Source: a virus. From it: DNA of 64,000 nt. A program made the position numbers and the translations under genes. The notes beneath the pieces were generated by a model that saw nothing but the letters and a program-made list of their open reading frames with translations, did not search any database and was not told the origin of the DNA. Below, piece after piece: positions 36,412-63,060 of this stretch; within the stretch, counting starts at the first letter, position 1; each line of letters opens with the position of its first letter. The DNA lies in the IMG/VR virus record IMGVR_UViG_3300012000_000001, positions 133,027 through 197,026 of that record. One strand, 5' to 3'.

Positions 36412-36485
36412 CTTTCCATCTCCTGAATGTAGTCTAATTATGATTTACACCGAAAATGAAAATATCTACCATTTATCCTACATAG

Positions 36486-36570
36486 TGCCGGGGGCGGGAT
36501 TCGAACCCGCAGCGTTTCTAATGTGGGGGATTTTAAGTCCCCTGTGTTTCGCCAATTTCACCACCCCGGC
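36486..36570 (-). tRNA. trnL: tRNA-Leu (anticodon TAA)
   Basis: GCCGGGGTGGTGAAATTGG...GGGGA-CTTAAAA-TCCCC, long variable arm, GCGGGTTCGAATCCCGC, CCCCGGCA; CCA not encoded. Confidence 0.95.
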
Positions 36571-45985: not shown

Positions 45986-46006
45986 ATTAAATCTCTTTAA
46001 AGTTAG

Positions 46007-46356
46007 TGGAGGCGAGGGAAGTCGAATCCCTGTCCTATCGTTAGATCATTATATCTTCTACAAGTTTAGGATATTCATAAATTTTAAGAAAGACTAAAGA
46101 ACAAACAACATTCATCTTTCCGTACCAACTAATCTCAGACTAGAACCCGTTGGCAATCCTAGCAGCCGAAGGATTTTACGTCGATTTTTCGGGCGCTACC
46201 TTCATCGCTCCCTAAAACCGTCACTGCTTAATTAAGCAGCGAGAGCTAACTGTGTTTCGCCAGTTAAAGCGTTTAATCGACTTTTAAAGTGGCCGGTCGA
46301 TCAACCACTACTTGCAAATATAAATCACTTAGCGTAGTCGATACCATTACGCCCCC
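46007..46356 (-). ncRNA. ssrA: tmRNA; tag peptide (A)GETQLALAA
   Basis: 5' GGGGGCGTAATGGTATCGAC; TTTAACT-GGC GAA ACA CAG TTA GCT CTC GCT GCT TAA; 3' GGACAGGGATTCGACTTCCCTCGCCTCCA. Confidence 0.92.
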
Positions 46357-60708: not shown

Positions 60709-61223
60709 TTAGTTTCCCATGGAAAAAGTATCCATCTTTGGTCTTTGTTTCTATCTATAGTAATACTTTTATAATGAACACGAAAATCCTGAGATCTATT
60801 AAAAATTAGTGCGCATGTACGAGCATGTTTAAATCCATAAATCCTTAATTCATCTAGAATACTATGAAAAGTTTTTCCACTATCGCAAATATCATCGACA
60901 ATCAGAATATTACTATCTCTATTTAGTTCATTAACTTCATATAGTCTCACTTTATTGTCATCACTATCTCGTAACTGACAACTCATCATAATTAAGGGTT
61001 TATTGAATCGATGACTCAGAGCTATTGCGGGGATTAAACCCCCTCGTTTTACTCCAACTATATAGTCTGGAATCCAATTATCGGTAAGAAGCTGATGTTC
61101 CAAATTGTTTACATGAATATCAAAATCTTGCCATGAACATACTATTTTTTCTTGAGTTAGTGTTTTCATTTTAATTACGATATTTTCTGATTGAATAGTT
61201 TTTGTAGTTCTGTAAAACTCCAC
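60705..61223 (-). CDS. Purine phosphoribosyltransferase (Gpt-like)
   Basis: GVKRGGLIPA, LIVDDICDSGKT, WILFPWE. Confidence 0.88.
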   Translation of the reverse strand: MEFYRTTKTIQSENIVIKMKTLTQEKIVCSWQDFDIHVNNLEHQLLTDNWIPDYIVGVKRGGLIPAIALSHRFNKPLIMMSCQLRDSDDNKVRLYEVNELNRDSNILIVDDICDSGKTFHSILDELRIYGFKHARTCALIFNRSQDFRVHYKSITIDRNKDQRWILFPWETK

Positions 61224-61754
61224 GGTTGTCCGAATGGTTTATTATAGTTGATAGTGTTATCCACACCAACATCTAAAGTTAATCTATTTGACGATCTATC
61301 TTCATGATCTAGTCTGGAATGTACATGACCATATAAATGATAGCTACCTTTATGGCTTGACGGCCAAGAACGATGAGGATAATGGCTTAAAAAGATTTTT
61401 TTGTTACAATATGTGATTTCTTTAACGTCATATAATGAGGTAAAGCCATTCATATCAGTAGTAATTTCATTTATGTAATAATCTGTACGTTTGTCATGAT
61501 TACCAAAAATTAAATGCACATTTCTACAATTTATATGAACCCTATAATCTAGTGGTTTTTTGCCCTTGAAACAAAAATCTCCAAGTATGTATAGAGTATC
61601 ATCATGCTTTACAACTGTGTTTATGTTGTCAAATATGGTTTTATTCATATGATGAGCATCAGTAAACGGACGATTACAATGTTTAATTATATTATAATGA
61701 CCTTAGTTAGCCCGAAGGCTAACCAAAGTGAGTATCAGATATAAAATATATCAT
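61175..61754 (-). CDS. Calcineurin-like metallophosphoesterase, predicted to need a 19-nt translational bypass at 61721-61703
   Basis: MIYFISDTHFG (61754-61722) + HYNIIKHCNRPF...LGDF...GNHD...SH...LYGHVH...DVGVD in a different frame. Confidence 0.85.
61700..61726 (-). other. Putative programmed ribosomal bypass (hop) element
   Basis: GGT TAG CCTTCGGG CTAACTAA GGT: matched take-off/landing GGU, stop codon after take-off, 10-bp stem with C(UUCG)G loop. Confidence 0.75.
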
Positions 61755-61758
61755 AATA

Positions 61759-62610
61759 TCACTTATTATTTTTCCTTTCGTATCTTTGTCCATCTTTATA
61801 TGCTGAAATTAGATTTCTGCAAAGTTCTTGCTCTGCCCAGTTTCCTGTATAAGATTCAATCTTATCAAACAACTCGTCTATTGTCAAGTGGTCAGCATCA
61901 ACGTATCTTGTTTTCTTTTTGCTTATATTCTGTCTAGCAGTTAATATTTGACAGTTTGATGGGTGTCTAAGTATTTCTGGAAAAATACCAAGATCAAATC
62001 CAGTTTTTCTGGATAGCATATGATCTCGTACTACTCCAGAAATATTATTTACATTATGAAACACACCATGCTTTGCAAGCAATTTGATTTGTTTTTTATC
62101 TGTTATTAAATCAAACATTCTTTCTATCCAATCAGCTTCTTTATAATAGATTTCAAAATCACTTTTATCTTGCAAAGGAATCCAGTATCCTGAAGATTCC
62201 ATTTTTTGTCTGTGTTTAATTCTGTATTCTTCTGTCCATTTTGCTCTAGATTTTTCTCCAATAATTTTCTTTGATTGTGCTGAATGAGGTCTAGAATATG
62301 ATTCTGAGCTTCTGTGTCCATGACAAGCTTTTATTCTTTCTGGACTGAATTTTTTCCCCCTATTTGCTGTTCCAGCTTTGTATCTAAATTCATCTGTGAT
62401 TTTTGATTTTATTAATTTGGATTGTTTATTTTTTCGTTGTTTGGACCATCTTTTATCAAAGTTAGGATTATTTACTCCAATCATTGAAGATTTCATATTT
62501 ATTGCATGACATTTTTTGCTACAACAAGTCGATTTGCCCTTGGTCTGTGAAACATATCTAGTAAAAATTTTATGACATACTGGACATTCAAATGTGAGAT
62601 TTTTAGACAT
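61759..62610 (-). mobile_element. NUMOD3/HNH-type homing endonuclease (start MSKNL at 62610)
   Basis: Zn-finger, NUMOD3-like NNPNF.K / RGKKFS.E / HS..SKKII; C-terminal VRDH...HPSNCQIL...N; AAAGGAG RBS. Confidence 0.8.
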
Positions 62611-62650
62611 ATTATGTAACTCCTTTAAAATACAATACACCAAAACTGAT

Positions 62651-62689
62651 TTAATGCCCAAAATGAGTATCGCTAGTAAAGTATATCAT
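62651..62689 (-). pseudogene. Stranded original 5' end of the metallophosphoesterase gene (MIYFTSDTHFGH*)
   Basis: 12 codons then TAA; ATGA-coupled to the upstream gene; duplicate of 61754-61722. Confidence 0.8.
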
Positions 62690-63060
62690 GATTTATAGTC
62701 AGGATTATGTAATCCATGCGGTATGTAATCTCCTGATTCTTCATAATATTTATATGTTGTATTCATTTCTTCTTTATGCCATTTGGATACAGTTTCTAAA
62801 GCTTCATCTAGCGTATTAAAACAATGTGTTCTATGAGGTCCAAATACATATGAACCTATACATACTGCTGTGATAGGAAGCTCGCAATTAGGATCTTCCC
62901 AATAATTACCAAACTCTAAACTAATATGACCTTCTCCACTTTTACATCCGCAATCTTTGCAGTTGTCAAAATAATGGTCATACGCCTCTTTTAAAAGACG
63001 ACGAATCTTGAGAAGCTTTTCTTTATTTGTCATTTGATCTGGCTTTTTCTTTTGTTTCAT
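62686..63060 (-). CDS. Hypothetical protein
   Basis: ORF track. Confidence 0.65.
   Translation of the reverse strand: MKQKKKPDQMTNKEKLLKIRRLLKEAYDHYFDNCKDCGCKSGEGHISLEFGNYWEDPNCELPITAVCIGSYVFGPHRTHCFNTLDEALETVSKWHKEEMNTTYKYYEESGDYIPHGLHNPDYKS

Follow-up and report, generated by a model that had tools for sequence, protein, structure and literature searches.

Can a gene whose start occurs twice, with an endonuclease gene between the two copies and a stop codon inside a hairpin in the second, still be read into a complete protein, and how would such an arrangement arise? The question is raised by a metallophosphoesterase (phosphoesterase, PE) gene of a freshwater phage whose virus record spans 197 kb. 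The window analysed here is a 64,000-nt stretch of that record (IMG/VR IMGVR_UViG_3300012000_000001, positions 133,027 to 197,026); related loci and contigs are referred to by L numbers. The locus is probably an intron-less homing cassette, which would rebuild the start of the PE gene and protect the new start with an insert hopped by ribosomes.

All parts of the locus lie on the minus strand (Table 1). An earlier reading of this DNA, made from the letters alone (the sequence-only reading), had noted that the PE start is present twice and that the old copy is ATGA-coupled to the upstream gene and ends where the insertion begins; this was confirmed to the base. The recoded copy that it described, MIYFISDTHFG, also lies where it had been placed, 4 nt (TATT) after the endonuclease stop, and is followed by the hop-type hairpin. 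No direct repeat in the region is longer than that formed by the two N-terminal copies (35 nt, 77% identity, 935 nt apart), the repeat partner of the old N-terminus being at 61723–61757. The old copy is 89–91% identical to the starts of two uninterrupted PE alleles (L013 and L002), and we propose that it is a remnant left of the insertion point and a putative left homology arm.

Table 1. Features of the interrupted phosphoesterase locus, with positions given in the window
Feature	Positions	Strand	Details
Upstream open reading frame (ORF), 124 aa; context only	62686–63060	−	TGA 62688–62686 overlaps the old PE start as ATGA
Old (resident) PE N-terminus, 12 codons MIYFTSDTHFGH + TAA	62651–62689	−	ATG 62689–62687; TAA 62653–62651
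Cassette left end, junction ...CAT/TAAATCAG	62611–62650	−	TTTGGTGTATT (GGTGTA 62641–62636); AAGGAG 62625–62620 before the endonuclease ATG
Free-standing gene of the putative homing endonuclease, 283 aa	61759–62610	−	ATG 62610; TGA 61761–61759
New cassette-borne PE N-terminus MIYFISDTHFG, 11 codons	61722–61754	−	ATG 61754–61752; putative take-off GGT 61724–61722
Putative take-off/landing hairpin	61700–61729	−	13-bp stem ACUUUGGUUAGCC / GGCUAACUAAGGU, UUCG loop
Coding gap, 19 nt	61703–61721	−	Opens with TAG 61721–61719; closes with TAA in the landing frame
PE body GHYNIIKHCNRPF..., 175 codons	61175–61702	−	Calcineurin-like metallophosphoesterase; in frame with the landing GGT

The PE body matched phrog_547 (E = 5e-36) and Metallophos_2 (E = 8e-6, 26.4 bits, just below the Pfam cut-off of 27 bits). 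It lacks only the first metal-binding motif, which the 11-codon N-terminus provides. Between the two parts lies the coding gap, UAGCCUUCGGGCUAACUAA, with a TAA directly 5' of the landing GGT (61702–61700); gap and landing codon together make up the 22 nt that would be skipped. The stretch was recovered letter for letter, with no indel or joint, in contigs of four public runs (two study codes; two of the four runs may be the source of this DNA), and is therefore not an assembly artefact. Megablast of the locus against 50,697 phage records gave no match, and all relatives of the PE detected in those records by tblastn were below 40% identity.

The motifs that the sequence-only reading placed ahead of the endonuclease, GGTGTA and a ribosome-binding site, were both located (Table 1), and TTTGGTGTATT is conserved among close relatives. 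The label of a promoter-like element found no support, as GGTGTA is not enriched in the window (21 occurrences versus 22.7 expected). The 124-aa upstream ORF gave no Pfam or PHROG match; homologues of this gene lie 3' of the PE gene in other relatives (L015 and L010–12).

The endonuclease gene is present in one copy in the genome, and 65 homologues were found in metagenomes. The order of its domains is an N-terminal YacG-like Zn ribbon, NUMOD3 repeats and a C-terminal HNH-like beta-beta-alpha domain. NUMOD3, a DNA-binding motif of homing endonucleases, was detected (PF07460) in 28 of 34 aligned family members with a best E-value of 1.9e-19, the window's own protein scoring below threshold. In the C-terminal 140 residues, R195, H197, N219 and N228 are invariant and D196 is present in at least 90% of members, all on the beta-beta-alpha unit. 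Modelled alone with AlphaFold 2, this domain reached a mean predicted local distance difference test (pLDDT) score of 90.8. Comparison of the model with 48,161 PDB chains returned 18 at Z ≥ 2, at least 14 of which are HNH or related beta-beta-alpha-metal nucleases; the best was 4h9d at a low Z of 3.9, and the weak fold matches included Gme HNH (Z 3.9), GVE2 HNH (3.6) and T5 SciA (3.2). From NUMOD3 in the family, the conserved residues and these matches, the protein is therefore called NUMOD3-containing and, as a weak assignment, HNH-like.

Other searches with the endonuclease returned little. Pfam gave no family for the window protein, and no Pfam HNH model matched either this protein or the family. 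Foldseek with the whole model and with the C-terminal domain found nothing at E ≤ 0.001, a PDB profile search with the C-terminal domain gave chance matches only, and tblastn against phage records produced only partial, weak matches (Campylobacter and jumbo phages). A single-sequence scan of IMG/VR detected nothing; the family alignment was required.

Empty and occupied alleles at one conserved site

An IMG/VR scan with the PE body returned 17 loci at 63–82% identity. Eight distinct sequences proved to be empty alleles, in which ...CAT TTY GGN CAT... is unbroken, in line with the uninterrupted counterpart anticipated by the sequence-only reading. An isogenic empty allele carrying the window's own upstream gene was not found among the related loci.

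The combination of endonuclease, duplicated N-terminus and hairpin, which that reading proposed to look for in metagenomes, was recovered in three further loci. The full arrangement (old N-terminus, TAAATCA junction, endonuclease, new N-terminus and hairpin) is present in L006, L196 and L286, the last two reached through endonuclease homologues, and the gene 5' of the cassette differs in the window and each of these loci, giving four upstream contexts. In L006 the old N-terminus is ATGA-coupled to a different upstream gene of 51 aa and the CAT/TAAATCAG junction is shared; these are followed by an endonuclease 71% identical to that of the window, a 4-base spacer, an identical 33-nt new N-terminus, the hairpin and the PE body. 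Between the window and L006 or L196, DNA homology begins precisely at the old ATG and ends at the PE stop, with unrelated sequence on either side. A 7.3-kb contig from a lake metagenome run (X7) is identical to the window over 61150–62689 and then turns into unrelated DNA exactly from the old PE ATG, so the same block of PE and cassette stands behind another upstream gene in a co-occurring phage. The CAT/TAAATCA junction is common to family members down to endonucleases of 48% identity. With the empty alleles and the four contexts, it defines a presence/absence polymorphism at one conserved site.

The two PE copies differ in how they vary. Old copies are lineage-specific and resemble the local empty alleles, and the new copy is near-invariant. 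Close-clade hairpin alleles read CAC TTT GGT at the motif (CAC CTT GGT in L287 and CAT TTA GGT in L101), and empty alleles have CAT; CAC TTT GGT is a set of synonymous choices that form the stem. At L287 (2346–2440) the endonuclease is 64% identical to that of the window and the old N-terminal stub is missing, while the hairpin has a UGA stop, a CUCG loop and a landing GGA. Two pairs of its stem are changed on both sides (UGACC/GGUCA). L287 may represent an ancestral intergenic arrangement. In L101 the endonuclease is only 43% identical and the hairpin gap is a 26-nt version.

Scans of IMG/VR and metagenome contigs with the endonuclease alignment yielded 81 more loci. Nearly all endonuclease homologues found (32–80% identity) lie directly 5' of a PE gene: a PE detectable by tblastn follows directly 3' of the endonuclease at 24 of 26 IMG/VR loci, and the other two carry a divergent PE. 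A strict D-x-H-x-x-H remnant occurs 15–70 nt 5' of the endonuclease in half of the loci with enough flank (28 of 56), often followed by TAAATCA.

For classification, each allele was assigned the shortest insert needed to recover D-x-H-x-x-H ahead of a long open frame. Among 64 unique endonuclease-linked alleles, 17 were uninterrupted (0 nt) and 4 unclassified; inserts measured +1 nt in 16 alleles, +4 nt in 1, +5 nt in 8, +6 nt in 9, +7 nt in 3, +8 nt in 1, +9 nt in 1 and +22 nt in 4. As a control, the same classifier was applied to 50 unique PE loci found via the PE; the 49 lacking an endonuclease comprised 46 uninterrupted alleles, 2 with the hairpin alone and L064. An insert of 1–22 nt within the six DxHxxH codons was thus present in 43 of the 60 classified endonuclease-linked alleles and in 3 of the 49 endonuclease-free ones (Fisher's test, nominal p = 8e-13). 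All 27 inserts of at least 4 nt open with a stop codon straight after the last codon read (nominal p = 1e-36), and in 20 of these 27 the last three bases share their first two with the take-off codon (nominal p = 5e-19). Examples are CTT TGA CTC, CTA TAG CTA, TAT TAG TAT, TCA TGA TCG, ACT TGACT, TTC TGAA TTT and GGT...GGT. The +1 inserts all read TTT-Y, where tRNA-Phe could re-pair one base on.

Several loci stand apart from these classes in detail. L064 (3955–4025), with no endonuclease in the locus, reads CAT ACT TAG ACT AAT, in which matched Thr codons would permit a +6 "stop-hop" one codon past DxHxxH. The distant cassette at L199 (3822–3900) contains an eight-T run (CAT TTT TTT T CAT) that needs a +1 slip or transcriptional slippage; positions 1–1700 of the same locus are rich in other selfish elements, including a ribonucleotide reductase with intein/LAGLIDADG domains and a SegE-like GIY-YIG gene. 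L201 (3882–3960) and L203 (3343–3420) carry an 8–9 bp hairpin straight after the start codon, a seven-T run that shifts the ATG into another frame, and CTT TGA CTC; either two recoding events or a non-ATG start may be used.

The coding gap and the possible use of the interrupted gene

The hairpin is the top inverted repeat of the region, with a minimum free energy of −18.5 kcal/mol (z = −5.2 versus shuffles), and one stem holds both the take-off GGU and the landing GGU. Over 10 alleles, 97.7% of stem cells were paired, compared with at most 58% in slid controls. Two stem pairs are compensatory in L287, and variation opposite GG is limited to C/U. Take-off and landing codons match (GGT/GGT) in the window and in ten close-clade hairpin alleles, and a stop follows the take-off codon directly (TAG in the window, TGA in L287).

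The 14-nt core of the hairpin, TAGCCTTCGGGCTA, occurs once in the 197-kb genome and is identical to the core of T4 gene 60. At the gene 60 take-off site the T4 record reads GAT GGA TAGCCTTCGGGCTA TCT..., so that between the two phages the take-off codon's third base has changed in concert with the base that it pairs with in the stem (GGA:UCU in T4, GGU:ACU in the window). This identity could reflect convergence rather than descent, because the UAG stop and the C(UUCG)G tip fix most of the 14 bases.

Most matches in a pattern scan of viral contigs for GGN-TAG-CCTNCGGG-CTA were to one hairpin, ...CTCTCACTTTCTCAATT GGGTAGCCTTCGGGCTACCC, which is conserved between genes of numerous small phage contigs from marine and freshwater sources and probably serves in termination or processing, with no relation to bypass. 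As a positive control the scan recovered the region of L125 (2871–2887; IMGVR_UViG_2706795719_000001), a T4-like gene 60 homologue (...IMTDADVDG) with take-off codon GGG, the TAGCCTTCGGGCTA core and a gap of about 50 nt.

Within the gap of the window, frame 0 is closed by TAG and TAA and the landing frame by the TAA adjoining GGT, so one frameshift cannot connect the PE parts. Simple +1 frameshifting and readthrough across the gap were excluded on these grounds, L006 alone being without the stop in the landing frame.

In the PE bodies of seven hairpin alleles, synonymous divergence (dS) is saturated (0.85–2.4), and the ratio of nonsynonymous to synonymous divergence (dN/dS) is 0.10–0.23. The 11-residue N-terminus reads MIYF[I/T]SDTHFG throughout the hairpin alleles, with synonymous changes only otherwise, and within-class pairs of the other insert classes gave pN/pS values of 0.09–0.44. 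These substitution patterns indicate that the PE is under purifying selection on both sides of the gap. No start codon (ATG, GTG or TTG) lies between the gap and Met19 in the window, and the 11 upstream codons encode the D-x-H metal ligands. As the frames are closed, no start precedes Met19 and the ligands are encoded upstream, a full-length enzyme would require the ribosome to move from GGT to GGT, a move that we infer.

Two explanations do without such a move. One is that the PE is dead or dispensable, having been split by endonuclease invasion, and that the hairpin stabilises or terminates the endonuclease mRNA, the full-length enzyme never being produced. C(UUCG)G hairpins are indeed common RNA-end or terminator elements in T4-like phages (10.1101/2022.08.31.505936), many database matches to the hairpin pattern are intergenic, and the gene callers of the assembly records call only a truncated PE 3' of the endonuclease. 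We nevertheless regard this explanation as improbable, in view of the low dN/dS over saturated synonymous divergence, of an N-terminus that stays in frame and changes synonymously, and of the conservation of residues from the landing codon to the first internal Met, a segment without a start codon of its own. Matched take-off and landing codons, stops flanking the gap and the absence of a T-run 3' of the hairpin also speak against it.

The other explanation invokes a shortened enzyme, whose translation would start again past the UAG or begin at the internal Met (MNKTIF..., 61648), or removal of the 22 nt from the RNA. The ORF from the internal ATG, 61648–61175, is open. Its product would lack the D-x-H ligands encoded 5' of the gap, although those codons are conserved, and re-initiation ahead of Met19 would find no ATG, GTG or TTG. 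As to RNA removal, contig data show RNA processing neither way: contigs of two RNA-library runs keep the 22 nt and contain no joint, which is weak evidence as DNA carry-over is possible. We know of no splicing system that removes 22 nt. Taken as a whole, this explanation is very improbable.

The distribution of the hairpin was examined on a PE-body tree from which L288 and L101 were omitted for their very long branches. Its resolution is poor; monophyly of the hairpin alleles was rejected (approximately unbiased test, p = 0.016, at least 4 state changes), in a test framed after the tree had been seen.

The window also encodes a phage transfer-messenger RNA (tmRNA; tag GETQLALAA) at 46006–46356 and a tRNA-Leu(UAA) at 36485–36570, both on the minus strand; no tRNA-Gly was found in the window. 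A link between ribosome rescue by the tmRNA and a stall-prone bypass is speculation.

Proposed homing, immunity and hopping

In the homing reading, the NUMOD3/HNH-like endonuclease would recognise naive PE alleles by their conserved coding DNA for the first metal-binding motif (D-x-H-x-x-H), and break repair would copy the cassette in straight after the second His codon. Besides the endonuclease gene, the cassette would bring expression signals of its own, a stop that closes the old 12-codon fragment and a new copy of the PE start. With the old fragment remaining as the left homology arm and the PE body serving as the right arm, the element could home like an intron, no splicing being needed. 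A fresh copy of the motif would again be a target, so 22 nt would interrupt it between the Gly and His codons and confer immunity.

Decoding would then proceed as follows. A ribosome at GGU, with peptidyl-tRNA-Gly in the P site, would meet UAG; as in T4 gene 60, the UAG-CC-UUCG-GG-CUA hairpin would fold again in or at the A site. The tRNA would release its codon and re-pair with the second GGU 19 nt downstream, brought alongside by the base of the same stem. Translation would resume with His and give the normal ...DTHFGHYNII... enzyme.

The element may have originated from an L287-like ancestor, with the endonuclease just 5' of an already interrupted PE, that invaded a naive allele in a different genomic context. 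Homology on the PE-body side only would have left the other end to be joined illegitimately after the second His codon, creating the stub and the TAAATCA junction. Repair tracts ending inside the new N-terminus would pass on the hairpin alone and could account for hairpin-only alleles; loss of the endonuclease explains these alleles equally well.

Several observations weigh against this account. Six distinct hairpin alleles out of about 13 (L015, L017, L095, L161, L290 and L291) have neither an endonuclease nor a remnant N-terminus. Two of them, L290 and L291, carry before the PE start a spacer equal to the last ~28 nt of the window's endonuclease ORF, which therefore ends in what is elsewhere PE leader. 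The same hairpin also interrupts an unrelated gene, with no endonuclease within 3.5 kb. Allele counts are counts of unique sequences, not of independent events, and p-values are nominal. The HNH assignment consists of motifs and weak fold matches (Z ≤ 3.9). At the gap itself, the interval 5–7 nt ahead of the landing codon contains no Shine-Dalgarno (SD)-like triplet; in the window the closest GGG stands at a distance of 8 nt, within the stem, and an AAGG shares bases with the landing codon. In L287 and L101, take-off at GGU would be combined with landing on GGA. Just 11 residues (MIYFISDTHFG, ordinary PE residues) precede the take-off, and a nascent-peptide signal of the gene 60 type therefore cannot operate. 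That signal is important for the efficiency of bypass in T4, and short peptidyl-tRNAs are prone to drop-off; the efficiency of the hop may be low.

The unrelated gene is a member of Glyco_transf_9 (GT9) in L136 (10185–10275; IMGVR_UViG_3300009537_000353). After codon 15 (...RSGAFG/DNIILTP) it is broken in frame by GGT TAGCCTTCGGGCTAACTA GGC, 18+3 nt with two stops. Its GT9 relatives, seven distinct sequences from eight loci at 63–73% identity, read unbroken through ...GA(F/Y) GD..., and no endonuclease was found within ~3.5 kb of the hairpin. GT9 is a second target gene for the hairpin. Given this copy and the hairpin-only PE alleles, the hairpin may have, or may first have had, a role other than immunity, and may not be strictly tied to this endonuclease.

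These same facts favour an independent hairpin, either a portable bypass or merely an insertional mini-element targeting ...TTT GGN, beside which the endonuclease landed and for which protection is incidental or absent. The six hairpin-only PE alleles stand in their native context, L287 combines endonuclease and hairpin without an old N-terminus, and in GT9 the same 18 nt, TAGCCTTCGGGCTAACTA, follow TTT GGT in a gene whose relatives are empty. On balance we consider this explanation unlikely. Target codons are broken far more often in endonuclease-linked copies than in unlinked PE genes (43/60 against 3/49), and the inserts are of many unrelated kinds, as selection for disruption of the target predicts. 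Relatives of the T4 element often lose the endonuclease and keep the bypass, and hairpin-only alleles are thus expected under the cassette model too. The co-occurrence of insert and endonuclease put forward in the sequence-only reading accordingly holds across the family, but within the close clade hairpin-only alleles are as frequent as alleles with both.

A broader proposal is more tentative, being possible rather than likely: UAG-CC(UUCG)GG-CUA with a matched Gly landing codon may form a portable, self-sufficient bypass module. Such a module would share descent with the T4 gene 60 signal, would work after 11–15 codons without a nascent-peptide signal, and would move among phosphoesterase, GT9 glycosyltransferase and topoisomerase genes, whether or not an endonuclease accompanies it. 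The module and the sister inserts of +1 to +9 nt would make up a natural series of graded slips and hops, used by selfish endonucleases as immunity against cleavage.

Comparison with known systems

T4 gene 60 is the one well-studied model of natural bypass in bacteria and phages. If the homing-cassette reading is correct, the present locus is a natural ribosome jump outside the only gene with a published one: the same take-off hairpin, in a different enzyme and beside a different endonuclease, with a 22-nt gap and no room for a nascent-peptide signal. It would add a third strategy by which a homing endonuclease can persist within an essential motif with neither intron nor intein: the start of the gene is rebuilt, and the endonuclease's own target is disrupted by an insert that is corrected in translation. 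Relatives of the locus make it possible to test which features of gene 60 are required, whether hairpin, stop and matched codon suffice, and how bypass scales over inserts of +1, +4 to +9, 22 and 26 nt. For annotation, such genes are currently called truncated or split. A full-text literature search combining bypassing with phosphoesterase or metagenomes found no published report outside topoisomerase genes.

Bypass in T4 gene 60 forms part of the MobA homing-endonuclease element (Bonocora et al. 2011, cited in 10.1101/2022.08.31.505936). In the one broad survey located, Manning & Atkins describe dozens of gene 60-type cassettes, "exclusively" in the gene for the topoisomerase II large subunit and all within the MobA element, and state that the cassette "remains unique" (bioRxiv 10.1101/2022.08.31.505936). 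In that element an insert-borne copy of the target region precedes the bypass, endonucleases are sometimes lost or replaced, and an Aeromonas clade has a gap of only 20 nt; landing in T4 is associated with an SD-like triplet 5–7 nt 5' of the landing codon and an AU-rich gap (10.1101/2022.08.31.505936).

The likeness to the T4 mobA cassette drawn in the sequence-only reading holds for the layout. In both systems a 5' gene part is closed by an insert-borne stop and followed by a free-standing endonuclease, an insert-borne target copy (homR) and a coding gap. In both, UAG follows the take-off Gly codon at once, this codon is in the stem of a CC-UUCG-GG hairpin, the landing codon is matched, and relatives include forms that keep the bypass without an endonuclease. 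The likeness does not extend to the endonuclease itself. Alignment of the family profile with HY01 MobA by hhalign gave a probability of 0.2, and homology to MobA was rejected; MobA has its HNH domain at the N-terminus, so the domain order differs from the Zn ribbon, NUMOD3 and C-terminal HNH-like domain found here. The target is a metallophosphoesterase instead of the topoisomerase II large subunit, and C- and N-terminal extension (CTE/NTE) tails are missing. The landing codon of the 22-nt gap is inside the same stem, 11 residues precede take-off compared with a leader of ~45 aa, and no SD-like triplet stands at the T4 spacing. In contrast to T4, the gene is not split into two working subunits: its whole N-terminus is duplicated, the old copy being a 12-codon stub. 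From these comparisons we file the locus as one that would work like the gene 60 bypass, not as a member of the MobA element.

A second comparison is with MobE in nrdA of phage Aeh1, where the gene is split with added tails and the halves work as separate polypeptides, no recoding being involved (10.1101/2022.08.31.505936). There a free-standing HNH homing endonuclease occupies a conserved enzyme gene with no intron or intein, and function is rescued by element-borne sequence; the present locus, with its HNH-like endonuclease, would follow the same pattern. The difference is that the 5' fragment here is too short to function; the start is rebuilt and the coding gap would have to be hopped.

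The smaller sister inserts recall stop-hopping, in which the P-site tRNA leaves the codon before a stop and re-pairs a few bases on; the +5 to +9 inserts have exactly this form. In E. coli, peptidyl-tRNAs reportedly make such short stop-hops (e.g., CUU-UAG-CUA) at low efficiency and in synthetic or mutant contexts, as Weiss et al. are said to have described in 1987. The inserts here are natural, conserved and tied to a mobile element. The "byp" elements of Magnusiomyces capitatus mitochondria, attributed to Lang et al. in 2014, are reportedly short hairpin-forming inserts with matched codons in several protein genes that are bypassed in translation. The second target gene, GT9 in L136, hints at a similar portability of the phage hairpin. 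However, byp elements occur in dozens of copies per mitochondrial genome, are GC-rich and have no endonuclease link, whereas the phage hairpin is present in one copy per genome.

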